From: Lachnospiraceae bacterium
GTDB lineage: Bacteria > Bacillota > Clostridia > TANB77 > CAG-508
Direction of reading: 5' to 3'
Length of the DNA: 64,000 nt
Assembly (NCBI GenBank): GCA_963621995.1
Contig: CAVFFZ010000004.1
Span: 16,876-80,875 of the forward strand
Position numbers and translations under genes: made by a program
In this document: in pieces, positions 1,761 to 57,640 of the stretch
How the letters are laid out: every line of letters begins with the position of its first letter
How positions within the stretch are numbered: position 1 is the first letter of the stretch
The notes under the pieces: model-generated
Told to the model about the DNA's origin: nothing
Databases searched by the model: none
What the model saw: only the letters and a program-made list of their open reading frames with translations

Positions 1761-4091
1761 TTAATTTATTATTTCTAAACCAGCATATTTTGCCATTAAA
1801 CGCTTATGTCCTGCTTTATCAAAGTTAATGTCTACTTTTGCGTCTTCTCCTTCTTGTTCTATAGAATTTATAGTTCCTTCACCAAATTTCTTATGGTATA
1901 CTCGCATTCCTGATTGATATTTTGAAATGTCTATATCTTGTTTTGGTTTGTTTAAAGAATTTAAGAAATTTTCTGCAGTTCTAAACGCAAAGCCAGAATT
2001 GTTATCCACTTTTTGTGCTTTAGGTGTGGATATGCTTCCTGCAGCATTGTATGTTCTTACATCTGTTTCATTAAATTTGTATGTTTTTACTTTTCCAGCA
2101 TAATTTGTTCCATATGCCCAGCCATAATTTGAATCTTCAAAGTTTTCTTCTCTATTTCCATTCATCTCACTATAGCCTTCTAGTAGCTCTTCTGGAATTT
2201 CTTTAACAAAACGAGAAATTGCATTGTAACTTGTTGAGCCAAATATTGTTCTGTGCTTAGCACATGTTAAGTATAAATATTGTTTTGCTCTTGTAATTCC
2301 TACATAGAACAAACGTCTCTCTTCTTCTAATTCTTTTGGCTCTCCTATTGATTTGTAACCTGGGAATATTCCCTCTTCCATTCCTACTAAGAAAACGACT
2401 GGGAATTCTAGTCCTTTTGCACTATGAAGTGTCATTAATGTAACACTTTCGTCTGTCTCTTGTAAGTTATCTACATCACTAGATAATGTAATACTTTCTA
2501 AGAATTCATTTAATGAATTTTCTGCATATTCTTCTTCAAATTCCATTGCTACTGTTAATAACTCGTCCAAATTTTGAATTCTGCTTTCTGCTTCTACTGT
2601 ATTTTCTAGTTCTAAAGCTTTTGTGTATCCACTTTTGTTTAATACCATTTTTATTAATTCTGATATTTGTGTTTCATCTTTCTTGCTCTTTAGGTCTTCT
2701 ATTAATTCTATGAATTCTCTTGAATTTACAAATACTCTGTTTAATCCGTACTCATCTGCATGTTTTATTACCTCATACATTGAGTTTCCTGTTTGGTAAC
2801 TAATTTCTTCAACATTGTCTAAACTTGTTTTTCCTATTCCACGTTTTGGCTCATTTATAATTCTTTTTAGAGATATATTATCTGATTGATTTGCAATTAA
2901 ACGTAAATATGCAATTGTATCTTTTATTTCTTTTCTTTCATAGAATTTTAGCCCACCTACTACTTTGTATGGTATATCTTCTCTTAATAAAATATCTTCT
3001 ATTGCTCTTGATTGTGAGTTCATTCTATATAGAATTGAGAAGTCTGAATATTTAAAATATTCCTCTGCTTTTAAGTGATTTATTTGTTCAACGATGTATC
3101 TTGCTTCGTCATATTCGTCATCGCCTTGATAAATTGCTGGTAACTTTCCTTCTTCATTTTCTGTCCATAGTTTTTTCTCATATTTTGTCTCATTATTTTT
3201 TATTACATAATTTGCTGCTTTTAAAATATTTCCTGTACAACGATAATTTTGCTCTAATTTAATTATTTTTGTTCCTGGAAAGTCTTTTTCAAAGTTTAAT
3301 ATGTTAGAAATATCTGCTCCACGGAAACTATATATTCCTTGGTCATTGTCTCCTACAACTGTAATGTTTCCATACTTTGAAGCCAAAATTGTTACTAATG
3401 TAAATTGAGCTTTGTTTGTATCTTGGTATTCATCTACTAATACATATTTGAATTTTTCTGTGTAGTAGTCTAGTACCTCTGGATTTTCTGTTAATATTTT
3501 TATTGTATAATTTATTATATCGTCAAAATCTATTGCATTATTTTCTTTTAAACGTTTTTGATATAGAGTATATATTTCTCCTATTTTTGCTTTTCTAAAG
3601 TCTGCCTGATATTTAACACAGTATTGCATAGGTTCTAACATTTCATTTTTTGCATTGCTTATTTCTGATAAAACACTTCTATCCGTAAACATTTTGTCGT
3701 CTATATTTAATGCTTTTAAACATTCTTTTACTAATGTTCTTTGATCTTGAGTGTCAAATATTAGAAATGATGAATCAAAACCTATTCTGTCTATATATTT
3801 TCTTAAAATACGCACACAAATAGAATGGAATGTTCCCATCCATATATCTTTTGCAACATCTCCAACTAAATTTTCTATTCTTTCTTTCATTTCGTTAGCT
3901 GCTTTATTTGTGAATGTTATTGCTAATATATTCCATGGCGCTATGTTTTTTTCAGCTATTAGGTATGCTATTTTGTGTGTTAATACTTTTGTTTTACCAC
4001 TTCCTGCTCCTGCTATTACCAAGCATGGTCCCTCAGTTTCTAGTACCGCTTCTTTTTGTTTATTATTTAATCCTTCTATTAACTCTTGCAT
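1761..4091 (-). CDS. pcrA: ATP-dependent DNA helicase PcrA/UvrD
   Basis: Track ORF 1761..4118. Walker A is AGAGSGKTKVLT and UvrD motifs run throughout. The internal ATG at 4091 has a GGAG RBS at 9 nt; the ATG at 4118 has none. Confidence 0.9.
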   Translation of the reverse strand: MQELIEGLNNKQKEAVLETEGPCLVIAGAGSGKTKVLTHKIAYLIAEKNIAPWNILAITFTNKAANEMKERIENLVGDVAKDIWMGTFHSICVRILRKYIDRIGFDSSFLIFDTQDQRTLVKECLKALNIDDKMFTDRSVLSEISNAKNEMLEPMQYCVKYQADFRKAKIGEIYTLYQKRLKENNAIDFDDIINYTIKILTENPEVLDYYTEKFKYVLVDEYQDTNKAQFTLVTILASKYGNITVVGDNDQGIYSFRGADISNILNFEKDFPGTKIIKLEQNYRCTGNILKAANYVIKNNETKYEKKLWTENEEGKLPAIYQGDDEYDEARYIVEQINHLKAEEYFKYSDFSILYRMNSQSRAIEDILLREDIPYKVVGGLKFYERKEIKDTIAYLRLIANQSDNISLKRIINEPKRGIGKTSLDNVEEISYQTGNSMYEVIKHADEYGLNRVFVNSREFIELIEDLKSKKDETQISELIKMVLNKSGYTKALELENTVEAESRIQNLDELLTVAMEFEEEYAENSLNEFLESITLSSDVDNLQETDESVTLMTLHSAKGLEFPVVFLVGMEEGIFPGYKSIGEPKELEEERRLFYVGITRAKQYLYLTCAKHRTIFGSTSYNAISRFVKEIPEELLEGYSEMNGNREENFEDSNYGWAYGTNYAGKVKTYKFNETDVRTYNAAGSISTPKAQKVDNNSGFAFRTAENFLNSLNKPKQDIDISKYQSGMRVYHKKFGEGTINSIEQEGEDAKVDINFDKAGHKRLMAKYAGLEIIN

Positions 4092-4111
4092 TTTTGTTTC
4101 TCCATTTCTTA

Positions 4112-4140
4112 TTGACATATTTAATATTTTTGTTTATAAT
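4112..4140 (+). promoter_or_regulatory. consensus sigma-A promoter, TTGACA-17 nt-TATAAT
   Basis: TTGACA at 4112-4117, a 17-nt spacer, TATAAT at 4135-4140. It points away from pcrA with no plus-strand ORF downstream. Confidence 0.6.
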
Positions 4141-4146
4141 ATATTT

Positions 4147-4230
4147 AGAAAATGAGAAACCACAAACGTGGTTGCCTAAGATATGTTTTAACAACACATT
4201 GCTCGGGAAAGCTAGATGTGTTGTTTTTTA
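4147..4230 (+). ncRNA. candidate ~85-nt small RNA (putative antitoxin, or antisense to the pcrA leader)
   Basis: Bounded by the consensus promoter and an intrinsic terminator (AACAACACAT...ATGTGTTGTT plus TTTT, 4190-4229). It contains the hairpin AACCAC-AAAC-GTGGTT and is convergent with the 39-aa ORF. Confidence 0.4.
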
Positions 4231-5443: not shown

Positions 5444-5502
5444 TGACATCAAAGTAGGCAGTTTCAATTTTTATTTTTGACTAATTTAATATTAAATTAG
5501 CC

Positions 5503-16334: not shown

Positions 16335-17396
16335 TTATTCTTCTTCACCTTTTAATTTTTCTGCTCTGTCTGCTGCTATTAAGTTATCTATCATTTCGTC
16401 TAAATTTCCATTTAAAAAATCTTCAAATTGATATACATTCATTCCTATTCTGTGGTCTGTTATACGTCCTTGTGGATAGTTATATGTACGTATTTTTTCA
16501 CTTCTGTCTCCACTACCTACTTGACTTTTTCTTTCATTTGCTATTTGACTATCTCTTTTTTGTTTTTCTATTTCATATAGTCTAGAACGAAGTAATCTCA
16601 TTGCATATTCTCTATTTTGTACTTGTGAACGTTCTGTTTGGCATTCTGCAACAACTCCTGTTGGAACGTGAATTAATCTTACTGCTGATGATGTTTTGTT
16701 TACGTGTTGTCCTCCAGCACCAGATGCTCTATAAACTTCCATTTTTATATCTGCTGGGTTTATATCTATTTCTACATCTGCTACTTCAGGAAGTACTGCT
16801 ACTGTTGCAGTTGAAGTATGTATTCTACCACTACTTTCTGTATCTGGCACACGTTGTACACGATGTACTCCACTTTCAAATTTCAGTCTACTATATGCTC
16901 CTTTTCCTGTAATCATAAAAGATATTTCTTTATATCCTCCAAGACCTGTTTCATTTTCATTTACTACTTCTAGTTTCCAGTGTTTTTTCTCTGCATACAT
17001 AGAATACATTCTAAATAGTGTTCCTGCAAATAGTGCTGCTTCTTCTCCACCAGCACCTCCACGTATTTCGCATATAACGTTTTTATCATCATCTGGATCT
17101 TTTGGAATTAAAAGTATTTTTAATTCTTCTTCTATTTTTGGCATAGCTTCTTTATTTGCAAGCATTTCTTCTTCAGCTAAATCTTTCATTTCTGGGTCAT
17201 TCATCATTTCTTTTGCTTCTTCATATGCTTGTTTTGCTTTTTTATATTCTCTGTATTTTTGTACTATTGGTTCTAATTCTGCATGTTCTTTCATATATTC
17301 GCGCCATTCGTTTGTTCTTGAAATTACTTCTGGATCGCTTATTTTTGTTGTTAATTCTTCATAACGTTTTTCTACCGTCTCTAATTTATCAAACAT
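16335..17396 (-). CDS. prfA: peptide chain release factor 1
   Basis: [11 protein letters not shown] (GGQ) and an RF1-type body, 353 aa. Confidence 0.9.
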
Positions 17397-20720: not shown

Positions 20721-20745
20721 AAAAAATCCGCTATAGCGGATTTTT
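20721..20745. terminator. hairpin AAATCCGC-TATA-GCGGATTT
   Basis: Immediately downstream of the coupling-protein gene. Confidence 0.5.
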
Positions 20746-38363: not shown

Positions 38364-39900
38364 TTAATTTTTCCAATATTTTTTATCTAAATTTCTATAT
38401 TGAATTGCTTCTGTAATGTGAGTTATTTCTATATTTTCTTTTTCTTCTAAATCTGCTATTGTTCTAGCAACTTTTAAAATTCTGTTATGTGCTCTTGCAC
38501 TTAAGCCTAATGTTTCAAAAGCTTTCTTTAAAATTTGTTTTTCTTTTTCTCCTAATTTACAATATTTTTCTATTAAAGTTGGTGTTAATTGTGAATTAGA
38601 ATATATTTCTGAATTTTTATATCTACTTTGTTGAATCTTTCTTGCTCTATCTACTCTTTCTTTTATTTTTGCAGATGTTTCTATTTTTTCATTTCCCTGT
38701 AATTTTTCATATTTTACAGGTGTTACCTCTACTTGTATATCTATTCTATCTAAAAGAGGCCCACTTATTTTCCCCATATATTTTTGTATTGCTTGCGGTG
38801 TGCATGTACATTCTTTTTCTTTTGATCCATAAAAACCACAAGGGCATGGATTCATTGAAGCAACAAGCATAAAATTACATGGGTAGCTAAGAGTAGCATT
38901 TATTCTACTTATTGTAACTACTCTATCTTCTAAAGGTCCTCTAAGCACCTCTAATGTATTTTTATTAAATTCTGGTAATTCATCTAAAAACAAAACTCCA
39001 TTGTGTGCTAAACTTATTTCCCCCGGCTTTGGTATTTTCCCTCCACCCACAAGTGATGCTGGTGAAATTGTATGATGTGGTGCTCTATATGGTCTTACTG
39101 TTATGAGTGGCGTATTTTTTGAAAGTACACCTGCCACACTATGTATTTTAGTTGTTTCCAATGCTTCTTCAAAACTCAAACTAGGTAAAATTGATGGAAT
39201 TCTTCTTGCCATCATTGTTTTTCCGTGAACCTGGTGTTCCTATTAAAAGGCAATTGTGTCCACCTGCTGCTGCAACTTCTAATGCTCTTTTTATATTTTC
39301 TTGTCCTTTTACTTCTGAAAAATCCAATAATGTTTCAAATTGTTTTTCAAATATTTTATTTATTTCTATTTTTTGTGTAGGAATTTCTTTTTTAGAATTT
39401 AAATAATTTATGACCTGATTTAAATTTTTTGCACCTAATATTTCTATTCCTTCTACAACTGCCGCTTCTTTTGCATTTTGCAAAGGAATTATAATTTTTG
39501 TTATGCCAAGCCTTTTAGCTTCTATACACATCGGTAAAATTCCTGTTACCGAATTTAGGTTTCCATCAAGTGATAATTCACCTACAAAAGCAATGTCATT
39601 CATTTTTTCCTTATTTACTTCACCTAAACTTGCAAGTATTCCTACAGCTATAGGCAAATCAAAAAATGAACCTTCTTTTTTAGTATCTGCTGGTGCTAAA
39701 TTTACTAATATTTTTCTGCTTTGAAGTTCATAACCTGAATTCCTAATTGCAGTTTTTACTCTTTCCTTTGCTTCTTTTATACTTGTATCTGGAAGTCCTA
39801 CTATTTCAAATCCAGGCATGCCTGAAGAAATGTCTACTTGCACAGAAACTAAATATCCATCTAGCCCTGTTAATGACATACTTTTTACTATTGATAACAT
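38364..39900 (-). pseudogene. comM: ComM/YifB Mg-chelatase-like ATPase, single-base frameshift in Walker A
   Basis: Track ORFs 39181..40011 and 38364..39215. [11 protein letters not shown] versus [11 protein letters not shown]; deleting the base at 39225 restores [19 protein letters not shown]. Confidence 0.85.
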
Positions 39901-40091
39901 ATTTCCTTCTTTCTTTTTGGGTTTTATTTTAGAATTAATTTTTATTTGAATAAAAAATTGTTTTAAATAAATTTTCTTATTTATATCATAATTTATTTTG
40001 TTTGTAAACATAAAGCCGATAATTTTTTAAAGAAATTATCGACTCTATTTTATGTTTTCCGACTTTTTTATTTAATTATATTTATAAAATT

Positions 40092-42787: not shown

Positions 42788-44728
42788 ATGAAGTTAAACA
42801 TTACATCTCAAAAACTGATAAACGAAATGAAACGGATAATGCAAGAACAGGCAAGAACTAGTTGCAATGTGCAAACATTAATTAATTCTCTGTTTGACAT
42901 TCGTGATACTGAAAATGATTTTGCGAATTTATTTTACATTTATTTTGAAAGAAAATTAAAAATTAAAATTGATGTTATAGATTCTGCAATTCTTCAACTC
43001 AATAATGAAACAGAAATTGGCGTAACTAGTACAAAGTTTGTGTTTGAGACTTGCGAAGGTAATACCATAGATATTGAAATTGACGAAGAACTTGAAAAAG
43101 TCATTTATTCTGTAAATAATATTCTTATAGAAAATGAAAAAAAATACGTCATCCCAGATTATTTTGTGGTAGCACTTTTTGAATCAGAATCTCAAACAAT
43201 GCGTAGGTTTTTGAAGAAAATTAATGCTAATTATATGGAGGCAAAAGCATTCTTCAAAAGAGAAAAAATTTTTGGTTATGAAATTGTACCATATGAACTT
43301 AGTTCTTTTGTATGGTACAGGAACCCCGATTACAAAGGAATAGATTGTGATATTGTAGGGAGGGAAGAAGAAATCAAAGCAATTTATCGTATCATGTTAA
43401 AATCCAGCAAGCGGAATGTTATTATCTATGGCGACGCAGGTGTAGGTAAAACTGCTGTTGGAGAAAAGTTTATTTATGAAATAGCAAATGGATTGTGTCC
43501 CTTGAGATTTGCTAATTTCAAAGTTCTTGAGATGAGTGTAAGACACTTCATACTCAATTGCGAAAATTCAAGACAAGCTAATGAAAAGATGAATTCACTT
43601 TTGGATTTTTTAAGTAAGCAAAAAGATGATATTGTTTTGCTTATTGATGAAATTCAGACAATACTTGGTAAAGGTGGATTTTTTGATTCAAAAAAACTTG
43701 ACTTGTCAGCAACTTTAAAACCAATTCTGGCACGAAGCGATTTAAGAATTATTGGAATAACAACATCAATTGATTATTACAATAATTTTTTGTCAGATGA
43801 AACACTTTCCAGAAGATTTGAAGGAGTAGAAATCAAAGTTCCCAAATATAGTGAAATCTTTGACCTAATTATTCCAAGAGTAAAAAGAATAGAAGCCAAA
43901 AAAGGAATATCAATTTCCAATGAAGCTATTAATCAATGTATTTGGTATGCCGCGTGTTTTGAATACAATAAGTCAAACCCAGATAAGAGTATTGATGTTG
44001 TTGATAGAGCAATGGCAAATGCTGAATTGGAAGGCAGAAATTATGTTATGAAAGATGACATTGTAAATGTTTTCAGAATTTCATTTGAAAAATGGAATAA
44101 TATGGATGAAAATGTTAGACTTTCAACAGCATATCATGAAGCTGGGCATTATGTTATATCACGAATCATTAGCCGTAAAGTATATGAGGTCCTTGCAGTA
44201 TCAATATATCCAACAGATGAGTACAACGGTGTTAATGTATTCGAGTATAATGATGAAGCTACCCCTATAACAAACAGAAAATTCTTTTTGGATAATATGG
44301 CTGCCGATTTAGGAGGAAGAGCAGCAGAAGAGCTTGTGTTTAATGATGTCACTAGCGCAGCAACCATTGATTTGTTTAATGCAACAGAAATTGCCAAGAC
44401 TATGACTATGGAATATGGCTTTTGTGGAAAAATTGGCAAGAATAGGTACTATGCTGATTCAGACATGAAAATCGGTAGTGGTGAAAATGCAGATAAAATA
44501 AGCGAAGAAATAAATAATATAATAGATGAAGCTTATGAGCTAGCTAAGGAATATCTGGTAAACAACAGAGATTACCTTGACGCGATTGCAAATGCATTGG
44601 TAACACATAAGATTCTTATGAAAGAAGAACTAGACCTAATATGGGAACATGTTTCTAAAAAAAGAAGTGCATATAAGAAAGGTAAAAAAGTTGTGAAACG
44701 CATAAAAATAATGAAAATATTTAAATAA
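42788..44728 (+). CDS. soluble ClpA/B-like (Clp_N plus D1 AAA+) ATPase fused to an FtsH-type M41 metalloprotease domain
   Basis: IVGREEEIKAIYRIMLKSSKRNVIIYGDAGVGKTA, LLIDEIQ, LSRRFEGVEI (Clp D1), then TAYHEAGHYV...DLGGRAAEELVF (M41 HEXXH). No TM segment seen. Confidence 0.75.
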   Translation: MKLNITSQKLINEMKRIMQEQARTSCNVQTLINSLFDIRDTENDFANLFYIYFERKLKIKIDVIDSAILQLNNETEIGVTSTKFVFETCEGNTIDIEIDEELEKVIYSVNNILIENEKKYVIPDYFVVALFESESQTMRRFLKKINANYMEAKAFFKREKIFGYEIVPYELSSFVWYRNPDYKGIDCDIVGREEEIKAIYRIMLKSSKRNVIIYGDAGVGKTAVGEKFIYEIANGLCPLRFANFKVLEMSVRHFILNCENSRQANEKMNSLLDFLSKQKDDIVLLIDEIQTILGKGGFFDSKKLDLSATLKPILARSDLRIIGITTSIDYYNNFLSDETLSRRFEGVEIKVPKYSEIFDLIIPRVKRIEAKKGISISNEAINQCIWYAACFEYNKSNPDKSIDVVDRAMANAELEGRNYVMKDDIVNVFRISFEKWNNMDENVRLSTAYHEAGHYVISRIISRKVYEVLAVSIYPTDEYNGVNVFEYNDEATPITNRKFFLDNMAADLGGRAAEELVFNDVTSAATIDLFNATEIAKTMTMEYGFCGKIGKNRYYADSDMKIGSGENADKISEEINNIIDEAYELAKEYLVNNRDYLDAIANALVTHKILMKEELDLIWEHVSKKRSAYKKGKKVVKRIKIMKIFK

Positions 44729-44754
44729 ATTTTTCATTTATATCGTCAAAAATA

Positions 44755-44789
44755 AAAAGGATCAAACTACAATAGTTTGGTCCTTTTTC
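44755..44789 (+). terminator. intrinsic terminator after the AAA-M41 gene
   Basis: AAAAAGGATCAAACTA-loop-TAGTTTGGTCCTTTTT. Confidence 0.6.
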
Positions 44790-44862
44790 TCTATTAATTT
44801 CTGTAATTTTCACTTTTACGCAATATATGTATGAAAAATTGAAATTTAAGAAAATTATATTT

Positions 44863-44882
44863 ATAAGCATTGCAATGCTTAT
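44863..44882. promoter_or_regulatory. perfect 20-bp palindrome overlapping a -35 box (candidate operator)
   Basis: ATAAGCATTGCAATGCTTAT. TTGCAA (44870-44875), 18 nt, TGgTATAAT (-10 at 44894-44899). Confidence 0.5.
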
Positions 44883-44979
44883 GTAAATTATGGTATAATA
44901 ATAGAGTGTAAAGCAAACTTATATGAAACTTTAACAGTATGTTTAAAAATAAATATATATCATTTAAGGAAGGATAATT

Positions 44980-45270
44980 ATGGACGAATTTATTGTTATT
45001 AAAGTAATGAATAAGGCTACTTTGAGAGTATTGAAAAACCAAAATAAAGATTATTCAAAAAATGAAAAAATCTGTAGTCTTTTAGAGGATGAATCTTTTT
45101 TTTATAAAGTAACAAAAGAAGCTTCATTAGCGGTATTAAATCAAGTTGGAGTGAATACAGAAATGCTTGATATAACATACAAAAAATTAGTAAATAAAAT
45201 AAATTTTGATAAATTAGTTAATCAAGGTAAAATTGATATAAATGATGAAAATTTAGTTGTTAAATTTTAA
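44980..45270 (+). CDS. hypothetical 96-aa protein (first gene of the operon)
   Basis: AAGGAAGGATAATT-ATG. No family recognised. Confidence 0.5.
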   Translation: MDEFIVIKVMNKATLRVLKNQNKDYSKNEKICSLLEDESFFYKVTKEASLAVLNQVGVNTEMLDITYKKLVNKINFDKLVNQGKIDINDENLVVKF

Positions 45271-45293
45271 TTAAAGGAGAAATATTTTTCAAA

Positions 45294-46310
45294 ATGAGTA
45301 ACGAATATATAAAAAAATTTTATGAAGAAGCTTGTACGAATTTAGATGGTGAATATAAAATTGTAGTAGAAGCCGATAGAGACATTGAGGAAGAATGGAT
45401 TGAGCATGATGTTATAGATTGGCAAATAGAAGATTGTATGAAAAGTTTAGTGGAAGAGCTTTCCAAAAATACATTATTAACTTTTGAAGAAAAAGTTTTA
45501 AAATTATACGAATTTATATGTTTACATTATGTATATGATGTAAATGTATTATATTTTTTTAGAACAGATACAACAGATCCAGAAAATATTAAACATATTG
45601 CATGTGATTGGTATGGACGTATTATAAAACAAGATTGGTATTTAAAAAGACAAAATCATAATAGAAGAATATGTTATGAGTTCTCTAGATTTTATGCTAA
45701 AGCAATTAATACTTTGATTGACAATAAAAACGATTTAGAAGCAGTTATATTAGGAGATAGAGAAAATAATCATTATGTTGTCGGACTAACAGGAAAAGAT
45801 TATAGTATTATATTAGATCAAGATGATTTTAATCAAATAAAAGATTTAACAAGAGTTAAATTAGGTTTAACAATCAAAGGTATACATATATTTAGAGATG
45901 ATTCAGGAAAATTTACAAAAATACTTGAAAATTATAATAATAATAAATTAGATGAAGTAAAAGAAATTTCTGATGCGAGAAAAAAATACTTAGAAAATAA
46001 TGATATTATTGCATACATAAATGTAATTATTGATGTAATGAGAAAAAACAACATTGATGCTCAAGGTTGTTTTGAATATGTTAGAATTACAATAGAAAAA
46101 TTAGGAATGGATTTTCAAAAAATCTGGAAAGAAGATATTTCTGCAGATGAAAAAAGATATGAAAGATGTTTATACTTTAATGTAGATGATAAAAATTATT
46201 TATTAGATAGTATTGAAAAAAAATTGAAAGAAGTAACTGAGGCAGATTTAAGAGGTAGTGAATTTGTTTTTAGTCCAGAAGAAAACGAATATAAATATTA
46301 TGGTGGTTAA
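45294..46310 (+). CDS. transglutaminase-fold (Cys-His-Asp) protein, paralog 1
   Basis: EEKVLKLYEFICLHYVYD..., RRICYEFSRFYAKAI (Cys), NHYVVGLTG (His), ILDQDDF (Asp). Order and spacing match the transglutaminase-like core. Confidence 0.55.
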   Translation: MSNEYIKKFYEEACTNLDGEYKIVVEADRDIEEEWIEHDVIDWQIEDCMKSLVEELSKNTLLTFEEKVLKLYEFICLHYVYDVNVLYFFRTDTTDPENIKHIACDWYGRIIKQDWYLKRQNHNRRICYEFSRFYAKAINTLIDNKNDLEAVILGDRENNHYVVGLTGKDYSIILDQDDFNQIKDLTRVKLGLTIKGIHIFRDDSGKFTKILENYNNNKLDEVKEISDARKKYLENNDIIAYINVIIDVMRKNNIDAQGCFEYVRITIEKLGMDFQKIWKEDISADEKRYERCLYFNVDDKNYLLDSIEKKLKEVTEADLRGSEFVFSPEENEYKYYGG

Positions 46311-46325
46311 AAGGAGATATATTAT

Positions 46326-47462
46326 ATGAATCTAACAAAAATCAGTCAATTAAGTAATTTAATTAGTAGAGATTTAAAAAGAAAGGTTACAATAATGCTT
46401 GATCCTTCTGAAAATTATCGTATGGTTGGTAATTCAAATGAAGTTTTGTTAAGCACTGATCCAGTTGAATGGGAAATTCCTTTAAAATATGTTAAAAAGA
46501 TTGATGAGTTATGTAGTAACCCTGAGTTAAGCACTGAAGAAAAAATAGTAAGAATATATGAGGATTTATGTGAAGATTATACATATGATGATAATGTTTT
46601 ATCATATATTACTAAAAATGATGATGATACATTTTCTTTAACAGACTATTATGGTAGAAACACAAGTAAAGAATGGAGAAAAGAACGAAATAAACACAAT
46701 AAAAGAAATTGTTTTGAAATGTCTAGAATTCTTGCAAAATCTGTTAAAAAAATAACAAATAACGATGAAAAACCTTATGATTATAATGTATGTGTTATTT
46801 GGGATGAGGCGGTTACTCATTATTTAGTTGGACTAACTGGTAGTGATTATTTTGCAACACTTGATTTGGATGATTTTAATCAAATAAAGGATTTAACAAG
46901 GCAAAAAGCAAATCTTACCTTAGAAGGAATAAAAATATATGAAGACCCTAATAATCGTTTAACTAATGTAGTTAATGAACATAATTGTGGTAGAAAATCA
47001 AGTGCATTAGATGCAATAGAATGTAGAATAGATCAAAAAGAAAATATAGAGCCTAATTATAAATCATTAATTGAATATAATGATCTTGAATTTATAAAAG
47101 AAACAATAGATATTTTAAAGAATGAACTGAAAATTGACTCACAAGGTATTTATGAATATATAAAAGAAATTGTAGATACAAAATTTGGACCAAGAACTAG
47201 AAAAAAAGTTTGGACAGAAGTACCAAGCAAACCAGGTATTGGTAAAATATATACTCGTGGACTTGTACTACAAATATATGGTAAATCTTATTTAATAGAT
47301 GTTACAAGTAAAACATCAGATGATATGATGCGTCAGGTTACAAAAGAGGAGCTGAATTCTCCAAACGGACCAATTCCATATAATAAATTGCAACGTAATT
47401 GGGATACAGATCCTTTTGATGGTCGTGCTGGTAAAGAATATTATGATGAAGAGGAGAGATAA
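46326..47462 (+). CDS. transglutaminase-fold (Cys-His-Asp) protein, paralog 2
   Basis: EEKIVRIYEDLCEDYTYD..., KRNCFEMSRILAKSV, THYLVGLTG, LDLDDFNQIKDLTR. Clearly paralogous to 45294..46310. Confidence 0.55.
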   Translation: MNLTKISQLSNLISRDLKRKVTIMLDPSENYRMVGNSNEVLLSTDPVEWEIPLKYVKKIDELCSNPELSTEEKIVRIYEDLCEDYTYDDNVLSYITKNDDDTFSLTDYYGRNTSKEWRKERNKHNKRNCFEMSRILAKSVKKITNNDEKPYDYNVCVIWDEAVTHYLVGLTGSDYFATLDLDDFNQIKDLTRQKANLTLEGIKIYEDPNNRLTNVVNEHNCGRKSSALDAIECRIDQKENIEPNYKSLIEYNDLEFIKETIDILKNELKIDSQGIYEYIKEIVDTKFGPRTRKKVWTEVPSKPGIGKIYTRGLVLQIYGKSYLIDVTSKTSDDMMRQVTKEELNSPNGPIPYNKLQRNWDTDPFDGRAGKEYYDEEER

Positions 47463-47467
47463 TAAAA

Positions 47468-48082
47468 ATGAAAAAAAAAGTTATTGTGGTTATTGCTACA
47501 GAATCAAAAGATAAAATATCAGGAATCCAAGAAGCTTTTAATGAATTCTTTCCAGATAAGGATTATGGTGTAAAATATTATTATGGTAAAACACAATCTG
47601 ACGTTTCTGATCAACCATTTGGTGATGAAACATATTTGGGGGCTTATAATAGAATTAATAATATTAAGGCTAAATACGATTCAATATTAAAAGATAAAGA
47701 CGCTGATTATTATGTTAGCTGTGAAGCAGGTATAGATGACACAAATAAAGCAATGGTAGCTGGTAAATTAGAAACAATGTATGCTAGTGAACAAATTTCT
47801 TGTATATTAAATACTCAAACAGGTGAATATTCTTATGGCAAAAGTAGTTCGTGGATGATTCCTGCTGAAGATATAAAAAAAATTAAAGAATCTGATTTAG
47901 ATCAATATTTAAGAGGTTTAGAGTACACAGGATTACATGATGTGGGAAATGGCAATTATATTTCCAGAAGTATAGCTGTAAAACAATCTATGGAATCAGC
48001 AATAGCAACAAGTTTGTTTTTAGAAAGAAAACAAAAAATAGAAGAACGTAAAAATGCAAATGACATTGATGAAAAGCAATAA
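47468..48082 (+). CDS. YjjX-family (DUF84) non-canonical NTP phosphatase (ITPase/XTPase-like)
   Basis: VVIATESKDKISGIQEAF..., SDVSDQPFGDETYLGAYNR, YYVSCEAG, as in inosine/xanthosine triphosphatases. Confidence 0.6.
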   Translation: MKKKVIVVIATESKDKISGIQEAFNEFFPDKDYGVKYYYGKTQSDVSDQPFGDETYLGAYNRINNIKAKYDSILKDKDADYYVSCEAGIDDTNKAMVAGKLETMYASEQISCILNTQTGEYSYGKSSSWMIPAEDIKKIKESDLDQYLRGLEYTGLHDVGNGNYISRSIAVKQSMESAIATSLFLERKQKIEERKNANDIDEKQ

Positions 48083-48089
48083 TTTTTAA

Positions 48090-48312
48090 TGTTTGAACAT
48101 GTTATATATAATAATAAGTGATTTTTATTATCAATTTTATGTTGTAATGCACCTTGAATGATTTGATAAATTATATTATTCATATTCAATGTTCTTTGAC
48201 CTGTATTTGTTTTTGTAGTATTTCCTATAATTGCTTTGCCATTATTATCTTTTGTTTGAGTTCTTCTAATATAGATTTTTATGTTTTCTTGTGATTCATA
48301 TTAAAAATAGTA
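48090..48312 (-). pseudogene. relic of a tyrosine integrase gene (internal fragment fused to its own upstream region)
   Basis: 48100-48287 aligns with 50160-50341 of the integrase at 49810-51203. 48283-48312 aligns with the xis-int spacer at 51292-51320. The junction lies in the shared heptamer GTTTTCT. Confidence 0.7.
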
Positions 48313-48453
48313 ATTTTTTGTTGAAAAAATAAAAATTTGTAATATAATAATATAGACATTAAATGCTGTCTAGTCTTTGTCTGCGACTAGATGGTATTTT
48401 TTCGTTTTTAAGAGAAAATACCAACAACTTTTTAATGAAAGGAGGAGGTATAG

Positions 48454-48930
48454 ATGCCTAAAACAAAGTTTCAAAACCTTATATTTACCTTAATGACTGC
48501 TGTTTTAATGGCTTATTGTATGATTGCTTATAGTGTAGCAATAAATTCATCAGCTGGATTAATAAATCAAACATTTTTAATAGCATTAAAGGAATTTCCA
48601 ATAGAAGGAATTATTGTATTTTTATTAGCATATTTTGTTGCGAGTCCAATTGCTAAAAAACTAGCTTTTAGAATAGTAAATCCTAAAGAAGATAATAAAA
48701 TGTTTATCATTTTATCAATTCAAACATTTACTGTTTTAACAATGGTAGGGTTAATGAGTATATATGCCTTATTTGCACAACATTTAATAAATAGTAATAT
48801 TGTGTGTAATTATATAGTTTTGTATTGTAAAAACTTTATAATGGCTTTCCCTTTGCAAATATTTTTTGTTGGACCGTTAGTAAGAAATATTTTTAGAATT
48901 ATATTTAAGAAACAATTACAATCATTATAA
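48454..48930 (+). CDS. DUF2798-like membrane protein
   Basis: 158 aa, four hydrophobic segments, GGAGGAGG RBS. Family assignment is from memory. Confidence 0.5.
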   Translation: MPKTKFQNLIFTLMTAVLMAYCMIAYSVAINSSAGLINQTFLIALKEFPIEGIIVFLLAYFVASPIAKKLAFRIVNPKEDNKMFIILSIQTFTVLTMVGLMSIYALFAQHLINSNIVCNYIVLYCKNFIMAFPLQIFFVGPLVRNIFRIIFKKQLQSL

Positions 48931-49427
48931 CAACAACTTACAATTTTTATTTGTATCTGATTTTCTAACCTCTGGACAATTGAAAAACGGACTTCCAGAA
49001 GTTTGATTTTCAGACTTCACATTTATAAATTCTTCTCTTATTTCTGATATAGTTTTTCCTACATAAATTCTATTAGGTTTATTATTTCCTTGTCTTTTTT
49101 CTCTAATTAAATTAGCTTTATTTAGTTGTTCAAAGGCAGAACTAATAGCAGACTTACCAACATGTAATTTTGTTTCTAAATCCATTCTCGTAAAAATCAC
49201 ATACATATTTTCTTCTTCATCATAGTAATTTTTTTTCCTTTAGGAATATTATTTGCCAATTCATTATTATAGGTAAGTGATAATCTATCACATAATAGAG
49301 AATATAGTAGAATTGCTGTAGGAGATAAATCTTTATAAATCTCATTATTGCAAAGTTCTTTGTTTACTCGAAAAAATTCAACTTTTCGATAATCTTCTTT
49401 AATTTTATGTGGTACAAAAGTTAACAT
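48925..49427 (-). pseudogene. RepA_N-type replication initiator, frameshifted in a homopolymer
   Basis: Track ORFs 49197..49427 and 48925..49206. LLYSLLCDRLSL... and ...FTRMDLE...AFEQLNKANLIREKRQGNNKPNRIYVG parallel the intact copy at 56735-57640. The break is in the T8 run at 49231-49238. Confidence 0.7.
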
Positions 49428-49809: not shown

Positions 49810-51203
49810 TTAAGCATATTCATAATTGTAAGCTGAATCTACATAAAATATTTCTTTATCTATTAAATAATCTTCAACATTCTTATTTTCTGCCTTTTCA
49901 AATTCAACATCTACGTCAACATAGTATTTCATTGTGACAGTAATATCAGTATGCCCCAATATCTTCTTAAGAACTGCTGGAGCAATTTTAGCTTCTGCAC
50001 ATCTAGTTGCAAATGTTCCCCTTAACATGTGAGTATGAATATCAGTCTTTTTTACGACTTGTCCTTTTGTATTTTCTTCTTCGTAAATTCCAATATCCAA
50101 ATCTAATGCAATTCTTTTTAAGCTACTATTTATAGAGTTTTCTACATACATTGTTCTATCTTCTTTACAAAATAATAAATGTTCTTTATTATCAATCTTG
50201 TTTTCTAAAGCACCTTGAATAATTTGATAGATTATATTATTCATATTCAAAATTCTTTGACCTGTATTTGTTTTTGTAGTATTTCCTATAATTGCTTTGC
50301 CATTATTATCTTTTTTTGAGTTCTTCTAATATAGATTTTTCTGTTTTCTAAATCTATATCTTTATCATAATCTAAAACTAAAGCTTCTCCTATTCTCATT
50401 CCTGTACTCAATAATAGTAACAAGATATATTTGTGTCGACATTCCTTATAACTTGCATTATTCAAATAATCAACCAATTTCTTTTGTTCATCAACTGTTA
50501 GTGAAACTCTATGATGACTTTTATATTCACTTTTTGACTTTTCAACTCTATTATAGCCTTCCATAAAATTATCTGTTATGATATTTTCATATTTTGCTTG
50601 TCCAAATTCCATACATAATAACTCATAGTTTTGTTTTATAGTGCTTTTAGAATAATTTTTCAAACTCTCTAAATATTTAACAACTTCATCTCTTGTAACT
50701 TTGGAAATAGGTTTATTGGTAAATTTCTCTTTAGCTAGTTTCTTTATTGTATCTGATTTTCTTTTGTGTGTTGCCTTAATTATCTTACCTAATTTATAAT
50801 CTTCTTCAATTTTGCCTTTTACAAGATCAATTATTGTTTTATTACTTTTAGTAATTATTCTAAATTCTTGATTTTCTTCCATTTCAATTTGAAATGACAA
50901 TGCCTTATTAAATGCTTCTTTTTCATTCTTACCTACAAATGTTTTAGTTGTTCTTTTTCCTGTAATTGTATCCCTTCCTGTTGTTACTATTGCTTTCGGT
51001 GTTATAGAAAAATAGAAAGAATCACATTCTACATTGTTATCAATCACTTTTCCATTTTCAAATTTTGTTATTTGTCTATATTTACATTTATCTTTCATTT
51101 TACAGTGATTACAAATCTCTTTGCTAGATAAACCTTTATCTTTTGAATTTCTGATTGTTTTTGTTAAATAAGTTCCTACAGTAATTCCTTTTACTTTATT
51201 CAT
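49810..51203 (-). pseudogene. tyrosine recombinase/integrase, frameshifted in a homopolymer
   Basis: Track ORFs 50286..51203 and 49810..50250, colinear with the intact integrase at 58033-59340. The T7 run at 50311-50317 is one base shorter than the equivalent TTTTGTTT in the relic at 48250-48257. Confidence 0.8.
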
Positions 51204-51375
51204 TTTTCGCTTTCCTTTCTTGTTAAATTTAAGGAAAACTCTTGATATATTTTGATTTTTTGTGTATAATTATTTTAATACTATAGCAAGAGTTTTCTTG
51301 TGATTCATATTAAAAATAATAGTTTGAAGGTTTAAATGTCGCATATTTAAATCTTCTTTTTTATCTCTTGTAATC

Positions 51376-51570: not shown

Positions 51571-51938
51571 AAGTTTTTTCTCCTTTCGTACTTTATTTAC
51601 GATGATATTTTCTTTGCCCCTCATCATCTGGGAATTATTAGATGGTAATTTACATTACTCCACTGGAATTTAACCACTCCGACTCTGTCCGAGTTGCACC
51701 CTATACGATGAGTTAAGGCTATGCAAGTGTCTCATTATGTTGTATCTAACAACTGAAATATTCAATTTTCAATGTCCTATCTAAAGAATTTAGGGAAATT
51801 CTATTGACTTTTCAAAGTAATTATTGTAATCTATATATATCAACAAGTAATTACTTGGCTTTATCAAAGTATAACGTAAGCTTTATAATTTGTCAAGCGA
51901 TTACAATAAAATTTTTAAATATTTTTTAGGAGTGGAAA

Positions 51939-55304: not shown

Positions 55305-56529
55305 CTAATATTCAATATCAAAATCGTTATTTTTCTTCTTAAATTCGTTTCTATCAAGTTGTTTTTCAAAATTAAAGTCAGTATATGTTTCTCTCTCAAA
55401 ATCTCGTACAAGCTCATCCTCAGATGGATATGAAAATTTATGACAAAGCCATTTGATAAATTTTTTTAAAGTTGTTTTAAACTTATCTATTATCTTATTT
55501 AATTGCTTATTTTCTTGCTTTAATTTATGAATTTCTTTTTTATATTCATGTTCCATATTATAGGCTTTACTTTCAAATTTCAATTCTAGTTCTTTTTCCT
55601 TATGTTCCAATTCTTCTTTCAATAAACTATTAGAGAGCCTTAAATTTACGTTTTTCTCTGTCATATTTATATAATCTTCTTTGAAATTTTCTGCAAAATC
55701 TACAGTATTTACTTGTTTTGACAGTTCTTTATTTAAAGTTAAATTTTCTTTGTGAAGTTTTAAAATTAATTCATCTTTTGGCTTTATAATTTTTTCAAAT
55801 ATCTTTTCATCTCTATTAAGCATTACTTTTTTTATATCGCTTATCTGGGGAGTTTCTGGCAATTCTAAAGTTATATTTTCCAATACCTTTTTAGTATTTT
55901 CAAAATTAGTTATTTGCTTGTAATTTTGTATGGTTTCGTTTTTTCTTTTGGTTTCTTCAGCAGGTAATCCTCTTTGCAAGTCAAAACCTTTGCTTGTTAT
56001 ATATTCATAAAAAGCATTTTGCAAATTTCTATAACTATTTCTGCCTTTCCAAAAATCTCTACAACATACTTTATCAATTTCTTTTCCATCTTTATCTTTT
56101 GTATGAATTACTGGAATATAAATCAAATGCATATGTGGTGTAGTTTCATCAAAATGCACTACTGCTGAAATTATATTTTTTTCTCCAAGATTTTTGTAAT
56201 TACAAATAAACTTGTAGCTTTCTTCAAAATATCTTTTAGTTTCTTCCAGTCCTATTGTATCAAAAAATTCTTTATCTGATGTAAATACCATTTCACACAT
56301 TATTATGCTATTACTTCTAATTTGACCTTGCAAAGCATATTTTTCCCTTAGTCTATCAAATTCTTTTGTGTAACTTAATTCATTTTTCTTAAAGTAATAA
56401 TTCAAGTGCGATTTACTAATATCTATTTCCTTATTTGAATGACTTTTTGCTTTTCTATCATTATGAACACATATTCCGATTAGCTTGGCTCCTCGTTAAT
56501 TTCTCATTTCTTACTATAGCATAACTCAT
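55305..56529 (-). pseudogene. MobV (Mob_Pre) family relaxase, single-base frameshift near the N-terminus
   Basis: HFDETTPHMHLIYIP (HxDExxPHxH). The true N-terminus MSYAIVRNEKL... (ATG at 56529) is out of frame with ...GAKLIGICVHNDRK... and is restored by deleting the base at 56495. Confidence 0.75.
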
Positions 56530-56565
56530 TGCTCCGAAGTCCTTTCTTGCTCGAAACAAATTTAT

Positions 56566-56585
56566 TTGTCTAACACACTAGACAA
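56566..56585 (-). other. candidate oriT hairpin
   Basis: Minus sense TTGTCTA-GTGTGT-TAGACAA: an inverted repeat with a GTGTG loop, just upstream of the MobV gene, as in MobV-family oriT sites. Confidence 0.4.
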
Positions 56586-56734
56586 GTTTTTCAAACTTAT
56601 CCGTGTGCTCTGCGAGGCTTTCCTAAAAATGCTTTAACATTTTTAGGCTATAAATTATAATGAACTTATCATTATAATTTATAGTGAAATTGCCCATATA
56701 AAGTAGAGCTGGCAATTTCATATCATAGCTATGC

Positions 56735-57640
56735 TTACGTAGTTACAGCTTCGTTATTATAAGCAAAGTTAGTATAGAGAAAATCAAGTGAGCCATCTTC
56801 ATAGTTCCTTCCTTTATAAGAAACTTTATTTTCTTCTTTCTTTGAGATAGAAATATTTGTATTCCCTAAATTGTTATATAAGCAAATCATTAAATAACTT
56901 TTAGAATTTTGTATATTAGGTATATTCTTCAATATATCTAATAACTGTATTAAATTTTCTTTTACTATAAGCTTTAACTTATCTAATATTTTATAGTGAT
57001 TAATTGTTATATTCCCAACTTTTAAAGTATCTTTATAATATAAACTATCAATAACATCTTCTAAAATAGTTTTTTCTTCTTGTGAAAAGTCCTCTAGTTT
57101 GCATTTATCTTTTATTTCTTTTAAATAAAACTCATCATCACTATTAGGATTGATAGAATCAGTATTGATTATATTAGTTTTGATATTATTAGTATTGATT
57201 CCTCGTAAATTCTTCGATTCTAAATTCGTAATATTTTCGTTTCCAGAATCGTAATTTTTACGAATCAAGAAACGTAGATTTTCCGTTTCTTCATGTTGTA
57301 TTTTCCCAACATATATTAAATTAGGCTTTCCTAATCCTTGTCTTTTCTCTTGAACAAGTCCTACATCATTTAATTGTTTAAATGCTTTTGTAGCAGTCTT
57401 ATCAGATAAATTTAATTTTTCTTGTACTTCTTCTCTTGTAAAAATTAAATATATATTTCTTTCATCATCTATCCAATGATTTTTTTGAGATAGAGATAAT
57501 CTATCTAGTAAAAAAGCATATAATATTTTACTATCAGAATTTAGTTTATCTTTATATAAAGAACTTACAAACAGTTCTTGTGGTATTTTATAATATGAAT
57601 TTTCTAAATATTCATTATCTTTATAAGGTTTAAATTCCAT
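56735..57640 (-). CDS. RepA_N-family replication initiator
   Basis: YYKIPQELF...ILYAFLLDRLSLS...IFTREEVQEKLNLSDKTATKAFKQLNDVGLVQEKRQGLGKPNLIYVG. Confidence 0.75.
   Translation of the reverse strand: MEFKPYKDNEYLENSYYKIPQELFVSSLYKDKLNSDSKILYAFLLDRLSLSQKNHWIDDERNIYLIFTREEVQEKLNLSDKTATKAFKQLNDVGLVQEKRQGLGKPNLIYVGKIQHEETENLRFLIRKNYDSGNENITNLESKNLRGINTNNIKTNIINTDSINPNSDDEFYLKEIKDKCKLEDFSQEEKTILEDVIDSLYYKDTLKVGNITINHYKILDKLKLIVKENLIQLLDILKNIPNIQNSKSYLMICLYNNLGNTNISISKKEENKVSYKGRNYEDGSLDFLYTNFAYNNEAVTT

Follow-up and report, generated by a model that had tools for sequence, protein, structure and literature searches.

A conserved operon of uncultured gut Bacillota encoding two paralogous putative thiol enzymes, a small candidate partner protein and an optional DUF84 NTPase

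The 64,000-nucleotide window analyzed here (the whole stretch of DNA under study, positions 16,876 to 80,875 of contig CAVFFZ010000004.1, Lachnospiraceae bacterium assembly GCA_963621995.1) contains four adjacent genes, which we denote S, A, B and N. Their positions in the window, taken from the listing of open reading frames (ORFs), are as follows:

44980..45270, plus strand: S, 96 amino acids (aa)
45294..46310, plus strand: A, 338 aa
46326..47462, plus strand: B, 378 aa
47468..48082, plus strand: N, 204 aa, with a match to the Pfam family DUF84

All four genes are co-directional and separated by gaps of 23 (S/A), 15 (A/B) and 5 (B/N) nt, exactly as described in an original prediction made from the DNA letters, which had read them as a tightly spaced operon. 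The same prediction treated A and B as paralogs sharing three ordered motifs, and this is borne out as well: BLASTP aligns the two proteins at 33 % identity over 310 residues (E 2e-48), and each of the three motifs is present in both. The operon is chromosomal and confined to a lineage of uncultured gut Bacillota with low GC content; S, A and B are its conserved core, and A and B are cytoplasmic paralogs of a family that has not been described.

Scanning S, A and B with hmmscan against Pfam, NCBIfam, PADLOC and PHROG gave no meaningful match, and scanning their relatives singly against Pfam revealed no recurrent family among 48 family members (E up to 10) and 40 wider members. Likewise, phmmer and profile searches with A, B, A1 and A3 retrieved nothing relevant from the PDB sequences, so that the A/B family stands without a Pfam, NCBIfam or PDB relative detectable by sequence. 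A word-indexed search collected 1,138 clusters of A/B family proteins at 90 % identity, all of them unnamed or annotated as 'hypothetical protein' and originating from metagenome-assembled genomes (MAGs) of Clostridia. An exhaustive profile search of 1.84 billion representatives returned only 183 clusters at 50 % identity, which points to a compact, lineage-restricted family.

The alignment of both paralog groups contains 34 invariant columns, including C127, H160, D175 and D177. The Cys-His-Asp set proposed for these proteins proved to be absolutely conserved in both paralogs: C127, H160 and D175 are present in 100 % of the 79 A and 64 B orthologs from species-representative genomes, and D177 and about 20 other polar residues are kept in 100 % or nearly 100 % of them. 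Retention of the catalytic and polar residues in both groups indicates that neither paralog is a decayed pseudo-enzyme, and the invariance of more than 20 polar residues in both, across more than 60 species, points to an important cytoplasmic function. When the alignment is widened to the superfamily by adding the 340-aa and 530-580-aa forms, only C127 and H160 remain invariant and D175 is replaced by Glu, a pattern that reads as the signature of a putative catalytic pair of Cys and His, assisted by Asp or Glu. The motifs of A and B are surrounded by roughly a dozen basic residues (Arg, Lys and His) that are likewise invariant. No obvious N-terminal signal peptide was seen by eye in either protein. 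Across 63 species, pairwise identity of A rises and falls with that of B (rho 0.72), in keeping with co-inheritance. Both proteins end in conserved tails that are predicted to be disordered: A in N-x-Y-x-Y-(Y/F)-G-G in nearly all of the 79 orthologs (window 46272-46310) and B in the strongly conserved (P/Y)-Y-D-G-x (window 47400-47462). The Gly-Gly end of A is worth recording for an enzyme with a predicted protease-like fold.

The AlphaFold2 model of A is confident, with a predicted local distance difference test (pLDDT) score of 85.9 and a predicted template modelling (pTM) score of 0.86. In this model, at the level of secondary structure, C127 is the first residue of a predicted helix (127-142), H160 immediately precedes a strand (161-167) and D175 lies just after the following strand (170-174), a predicted placement that corresponds to the canonical arrangement of papain, transglutaminases and arylamine N-acetyltransferases (NATs). 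Foldseek searches seeded with the model gave best E values of 0.3 in PDB and 0.089 in BFVD, none of them significant, and about 22 of the top 50 PDB matches, all non-significant, are papain-superfamily enzymes. NATs occupy PDB ranks 1-3, 11, 15, 21 and 26 (8k51, 2pqt, 4nv7, 3lnb and 4dmo are among the top 50), and the rest of the papain-superfamily matches comprise the NAT-like amide synthase GdmF (8btm), the transglutaminase-like putative protease 3isr, SseI, AvrPphB, GtgE, USP5, Josephin and vasohibin. The top BFVD matches are NAT-type acetyltransferases and a COG3672 transglutaminase-like proteinase. The NAT matches reach probabilities of 0.60-0.69 in PDB and 0.95 for mimivirus L280 in BFVD; the PDB alignments cover only 60-110 columns at E >= 0.3. 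A second set of weak matches is to talin F3 and PH domains and hints at a PH-like domain near the C-terminus of A, at approximately residues 274-320.

The papain-like, transglutaminase-like and NAT families form one superfamily, Pfam clan CL0125 (PMC10318531). Neither PF01841 (Transglut_core), sought in A, B, 48 family members (E up to 10) and 40 wider members, nor PF00797 (Acetyltransf_2), sought in A, B and their relatives, gave a profile match, and no significant match extended over the three-domain NAT fold. The transglutaminase fold originally assigned to A and B thus stands as a Cys-His-Asp core at the superfamily level, with the three residues predicted at a helix start and on successive strands, but not as a transglutaminase assignment proper: there is no Transglut_core match, the nearest neighbors are NATs, and no structural match is significant. 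The model therefore lends weak support to a papain-superfamily-like core in A and B, at the superfamily level only.

Among characterized proteins, NATs (PF00797; 8k51, 2pqt, 4nv7) and NAT-like amide synthases (8btm) come closest, as the best-ranked structural neighbors of the A model in both PDB and BFVD; they are likewise cytoplasmic and have the Cys at a helix N-terminus and the His and Asp on successive strands. However, no sequence relationship to NATs is detectable, the 60-110 residues that superpose do so with non-significant E values, and, unlike NATs, A and B possess extra N-terminal, helical and C-terminal domains and a conserved C-terminal tail, and occur as a paralog pair with a small partner protein. 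The transglutaminase-like proteinases (PF01841, COG3672; 3isr) have the Cys-His-Asp core topology that is predicted for A and B and belong to the same papain-like clan (PMC10318531), whereas their matches (3isr and a COG3672 phage protein) rank below NATs, are non-significant and are accompanied by no PF01841 profile match.

Gene S is kept upstream of A in 68 of 83 loci, and the N-terminus of its product, M(D/N)EFxVIxVMNEA, hardly varies. S and A are fused in frame in four distinct proteins of 410-412 aa (P0021, P0043, P0048 and P0050), and in locus L095 (5001-6239) an S-A fusion stands alone, without a B or DUF84 gene. The fusions speak strongly for a physical association of S with A in its action and argue against S being the repressor of a palindrome that overlaps the operon promoter in this genome (see below). 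No DNA-binding family match was obtained for S in the Pfam, NCBIfam, PADLOC and PHROG scans or by Foldseek, which gave no match at all with the low-confidence model of S. We infer that S is a helical partner subunit tightly associated with A.

Residues ~59-91 of S (window 45154-45252) resemble residues ~71-102 of B (46536-46631) in constant register, at non-significant profile E values of 0.003-0.3. The B segment that resembles the C-terminal part of S carries a conserved EEKIL-x-IY-x-x-LC-x-x-Y-x-YDDN motif in many B proteins. Judging from this resemblance, S may have originated as a piece of an A/B family protein. The homologs of 530-580 aa were also tested for an S-like N-terminal extension, and theirs does not resemble S.

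For the survey of gene neighborhoods, one genome per GTDB species was scanned; 104 genomes contained a relative and 80 were kept. All 80 are gut, rumen or faecal MAGs, mostly designated 'uncultured Clostridia bacterium' or 'Clostridium sp.', with a few Bacilli and Mollicutes. Their contig accession prefixes are all different, which indicates one locus per genome, and the GC content of the loci is 23-31 %. The S-A-B cassette is conserved in more than 80 species-level gut and rumen MAGs. The 82 distinct loci have the following gene content:

S-A-B followed directly by N: 41 of 82 loci
S-A-B with room downstream and no N: 25 of 82 loci
S-A-B with too little contig downstream to tell: 1 of 82 loci
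A without B: 14 of 82 loci
N elsewhere in the locus: 1 of 82 loci

Two of the loci with A and without B contain S-A only, and another four are truncated or at the end of a contig. The others are solo A genes, which are scattered in the A tree, adjoining A genes of complete cassettes at up to 89 % identity, which implies that S and B were lost or moved repeatedly. In seven loci without B, a conserved 171-aa gene (MAGYVIHLAIAEEY...) directly follows A in the same orientation, at the position that B would occupy (L030 7063-7578). Considered as a replacement for B, it showed no family match.

The commonest neighborhood, found in 23 of 83 loci, has the order Mur-ligase gene, 197-aa ORF, CBS, AI-2E transporter, guaA, (PHP), S-A-B-N, DUF1980 and secA. 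Flanking genes among the loci include guaA, secA, prfB, a murD-like gene and ackA, and some loci lie beside ackA and iPGM. The 43 S-A-B-N loci have 27 different upstream and 23 different downstream neighbor families; retention of S-A-B-N across such varied flanks suggests that the four genes travel as a unit. The divergence of A is similar to that of the neighboring AI-2E transporter (69 % vs 66 % mean identity). Thus, the triad of A, B and DUF84 genes proposed from the single locus does recur (41 loci), but in a chromosomal setting, with housekeeping flanks and with N as an optional member.

The assignment of the fourth gene to the YjjX/DUF84 family was correct: N matches Pfam PF01931 (NTPase_I-T/DUF84) over residues 11-141 at 66.4 bits, the gathering cut-off being 25 (E 3.6e-18). 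Its N-terminal half, and only this half, aligns with VC0702 (PDB 1zno, E 5.4e-10) and YjjX (1u5w, E 5.3e-07), the inosine/xanthosine triphosphatases of the DUF84 (UPF0244) family, and the alignment includes the conserved motifs S-x-V-x-DQPFG...GA-x-NR and EAGI. Unlike the YjjX equivalogs, however, N falls well short of the NCBIfam equivalog cut-offs (62.3 vs 175 bits and 38 vs 117.1 bits for NF003459 and TIGR00258), and its C-terminal half does not align. N probably hydrolyzes a non-canonical purine NTP. N lies directly 3' of B in 41 of the 66 S-A-B loci with room downstream (62 %), with a median gap of ~65 nt, a linkage that is more than passive synteny, yet the gene is clearly dispensable. 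N thus appears to be linked to A and B by the operon as a facultative, frequently co-transcribed fourth gene. A distant A/B homolog of 536 aa, extended at its N-terminus by 200 aa, has three NUDIX hydrolase genes next to it (L090 5468-10066; also in L091 and L092), and the co-directional run in L090 also holds MBL-fold (Apyc1-like), GNAT, aminoglycoside-modifying (APH, AadA) and AbiEii genes. This adjacency could be taken as a second, weak hint of a nucleotide connection, in a mixed neighborhood of detoxification type.

Upstream of S, two overlapping features are present:

44863..44882, no strand assigned: perfect palindrome of 20 bp, ATAAGCATTGCAATGCTTAT, with the -35 hexamer at its centre, species-specific and of unproven role
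44870..44899, plus strand: sigma-A-type promoter-like site, read from the sequence as TTGCAA, 18 nt and TGg-TATAAT (extended -10)

The -35 hexamer TTGCAA occupies 44870-44875 and TGg-TATAAT 44891-44899, placing the promoter-like site ~80 nt 5' of the S start codon; the promoter and the perfect palindrome over it had both been pointed out before and are indeed there. As a class, promoter-like matches are at chance level in this 27 % GC DNA (37 found vs 32.8 expected), so the promoter call depends on position and on the extended -10. Many orthologous loci contain a strong TTGACA-17/18-TGnTATAAT upstream of S, comparable to or better than the site in the window, which indicates that the cassette is normally under its own vegetative-type promoter. 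An Rfam scan of the 5' leader gave chance-level matches only.

Perfect 20-nt palindromes occur three times in the window, against 0.35 expected in dinucleotide-frequency-matched random sequences (first-order Markov); the other two are CTAATTTAATATTAAATTAG at 5481-5500 and AAATCCGCTATAGCGGATTT at 20724-20743. The TTGCAA hexamer is itself palindromic, and only seven more pairs per side are needed to make the 20-mer. No second copy of its 18-mer core was found in the window at <=3 mismatches, and it was also sought as a regulon site in the window and the related loci, without a second copy being found. The palindrome is present in the near-identical contig L088 of the same species and absent from all 86 other related loci compared. 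Inspection by eye did not show it in L087 either, the closest relative that is distinct (64 % identity in A). No recurring inverted repeat was seen upstream of S in the orthologous loci, and no regulator gene lies in or adjoining the cassette. The proposal of an operator conferring tight repression is therefore not upheld, because the palindrome is limited to this species and the orthologous promoters are plain sigma-A sites free of an inverted repeat. In this species the palindrome either serves a local regulator as its site or arose by chance; the S-A-B system as such does not include it.

Searches of 50,697 phage records, 72,556 plasmids and IMG/VR found no copies of the cassette. The PADLOC scan yielded only a 13-bit CARF match for A (E 0.013) and nothing for S, B or N, and the base composition of the operon is not distinct from its surroundings. 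The single-copy occurrence, housekeeping flanks, absence of phage, plasmid and viral copies and plain composition indicate a lineage-specific chromosomal gene set and not a defense island. The description of the region as an accessory stretch was an interpretation that does not hold for the operon, as the integrase relic belongs to a separate element starting downstream; the suggestion of a defense or counter-defense function fares no better, the genes being single-copy among housekeeping genes in more than 80 species, which is nearly the pattern that the original prediction had itself named as counting against it, a gene set conserved in all relatives with no accessory distribution. A role in sporulation or in the cell wall was considered and dropped as a working idea, given the lack of an obvious signal peptide by eye and the sigma-A-type promoters. 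One spoIIID neighbor of a distant homolog is the lone hint of sporulation.

On balance, we favor, by a modest degree, the view that S-A-B constitutes a cytoplasmic thiol enzyme of the papain-like superfamily that acts through an acyl-Cys127 thioester, with S as a bound subunit, B as a second active paralog and the DUF84 protein as an optional partner. Expressed from an ordinary sigma-A promoter, the enzyme would have Cys127 deprotonated by His160, itself oriented by Asp175 (Glu in distant members); Cys127 would then attack an amide or thioester carbonyl, and the resulting acyl-enzyme thioester would be resolved either by water (amidase/peptidase) or by an amine (acyl transfer). Because both paralogs keep all the invariant residues, A and B are both probably active and probably act together. 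To judge from the invariant Arg, Lys and His residues near the motifs, the substrate may be anionic, either nucleotide- or CoA-linked or an acidic peptide. The NAT-like neighbors of the model, together with these basic residues, tilt this view toward a small anionic molecule as the substrate of an acyl transfer or amidase reaction. Several observations weigh against this view. No Foldseek match of A is significant (best E 0.089-0.3, TM-scores <=0.24), and no profile links the A/B family to any papain-clan Pfam family or PDB chain. The AlphaFold2 model of S is all-helical but of low confidence (pLDDT 69), and the case for an A-B complex comes from co-inheritance only. B is not obligatory, since 8 of the 14 loci that contain A without B have a clear solo A with room on both sides. 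Finally, the diversity of flanks means that the cassette could be mobile, and the divergence of A correlates weakly with that of its neighbors (rho 0.31 for the AI-2E transporter and 0.07 for guaA, which is too conserved for this correlation to be informative on vertical inheritance).

Two alternatives concern the chemistry. A and B could be cysteine peptidases or deamidases acting on a cytoplasmic protein in the manner of vasohibin-SVBP (6ocf, 7zcw), with S as a helical chaperone or activator and the DUF84 gene as a housekeeping passenger. The weak Foldseek matches include VASH1, VASH2-SVBP complexes, Josephin, USP5, GtgE, AvrPphB and SseI, S is small, helical and sometimes fused to A, and the DUF84 gene is absent downstream in 25 of 66 S-A-B loci with room; however, the top-ranked matches in both structure libraries are NAT-family acyltransferases and not peptidases, all structural matches are non-significant, there is no candidate substrate, and the DUF84 gene stays attached across many genomic contexts, so that we consider this unlikely. 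Vasohibin-SVBP offers a functional analogy only, that of a transglutaminase-like thiol enzyme needing a small helical partner, with VASH among the weak matches; unlike A and S, it is eukaryotic and has a Cys-His-Ser triad, as described for vasohibin in PMC4866520, and S has no similarity to SVBP by Foldseek with the low-confidence model of S. Alternatively, A and B might be NAT-like acyl-CoA-dependent acyltransferases, amide synthases or amidases whose substrate is a small, negatively charged metabolite, maybe a purine-nucleotide derivative, with the DUF84 protein functionally coupled. The best rank of NAT-family proteins in PDB and BFVD, the dense invariant basic residues, the linkage of the DUF84 gene in 41 of 66 loci in varied contexts and the three NUDIX genes beside the distant 536-aa homolog all speak for it. 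The NAT triad is Cys69-His107-Asp122, and its His-to-Asp spacing of 15 residues equals that in A. Against this, there is no sequence match to PF00797, the NUDIX cluster of L090 is mixed (GNAT, APH, AadA), so that the adjacency may mean little, and the DUF84 gene is dispensable in many species, which leaves so specific an assignment doubtful. Equally tentative is the broader proposal that S-A-B is an undescribed heteromeric thiol-enzyme complex, made up of two active papain-fold paralogs and the small helical S, that forms or cleaves amide bonds on a cytoplasmic substrate that is nucleotide-linked or anionic in another way, and that is functionally coupled to the DUF84 protein in a new pathway found specifically in uncultured gut Bacillota with reduced genomes.

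By far the least probable is the reading with which the locus was first presented, a repressed accessory module of stress response, defense or counter-defense, in which the palindrome is the operator and the NTPase clears deaminated purine nucleotides arising from conflict. The perfect palindrome over the -35 element of this genome, the integrase remnant and integrated mobilizable element immediately downstream, and the variation of the cassette flanks between species would fit such a module. However, the palindrome is missing from the orthologous promoters, neither the cassette nor its immediate surroundings hold a regulator gene, and S persists in loci that lack the palindrome and in some cases is fused to A. 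Furthermore, the PADLOC, phage, plasmid and IMG/VR searches were negative, each of the 80 species genomes kept has one locus, whose commonest neighbors are murD-like, guaA and secA genes, and the base composition is like that of the surroundings.

That no described system combines these parts was stated at the outset and agrees with the lack of library matches and with a literature search, which returned nothing on YjjX in an operon with papain-fold enzymes. The A/B family and its organization, with a paralog pair, a putative helical partner and a facultative DUF84 gene, are undescribed, whereas the chemistry is probably that of a known superfamily. A definition of this family would extend the papain-like superfamily by a new branch, complete with a partner protein, and might place the DUF84 NTPases, which are poorly understood, in a biological context. 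The analysis also removes a false lead, in that the locus is not a defense island, and makes S-A-B, from a gut lineage that is uncultured, well worth structural and biochemical study.

Further features of the window delimit the operon on either side:

44754..44788, plus strand: terminator-type hairpin of the gene for an AAA+-M41 protease, with 16-nt arms (94 % complementary), a 3-nt loop and then a T run
48105..48316, minus strand: integrase-gene remnant of 212 nt, internally deleted, with direct repeats matching 50166-50349 and 51292-51325 at 90-95 %
48392..48433, plus strand: first terminator-like hairpin 3' of N, with a 12-pair stem and a T run, the sole terminator-like site found in 44600-48500

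On the 3' side, the integrase remnant starts immediately after the N stop codon. Beyond it lie a DUF2798 gene and RepA_N fragments, then a second, frameshifted integrase gene (49810-51203, minus strand), parts of which are duplicated in the remnant. Further downstream are a pemK RNA motif, a gene of the radical-SAM/SPASM type and genes for Mob_Pre and RepA_N. This region is a decayed integrated mobilizable element whose edge abuts the operon, and the remnant is not part of the operon. The hairpin at 48392-48433 lies past the remnant; insertion of the element may have displaced the original terminator of the operon. Other parts of this element are located at 48925-49427 and 55305-57640, both on the minus strand. 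The pemK RNA motif, which lies inside the integrated element (51660-51738, minus strand), scores 51.3 bits against an Rfam gathering score of 34.8.

The genes on the 5' side of the operon in the window are dprA, a split comM-like gene, copA, copZ and the AAA+-M41 protease gene, which the hairpin at 44754-44788 separates from the operon. The latter gene (42788-44728, plus strand) encodes a soluble 646-aa protein of unusual architecture, in which a single ClpA/B/C-type D1 AAA+ domain with its lid is fused to an FtsH-type M41 zinc peptidase; it carries a HEAGH motif, has no obvious membrane segment, and its 185-aa N-terminus is without a match. Considered as a possible member of the system, it was rejected, having been seen in this species only (the window and L088); an apparent relative in L046 is an ordinary ClpC. 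In L088, which represents a near-identical strain, an extra 352-aa HD-domain gene (3145-4203) lies between copZ and the AAA+-M41 gene, and its absence from the window shows that this flank is variable within the species. The comM/yifB-like gene of the Mg-chelatase family beside dprA (38364-40011, minus strand) is split into two overlapping ORFs of 276 and 283 aa and is a frameshift or a pseudogene.

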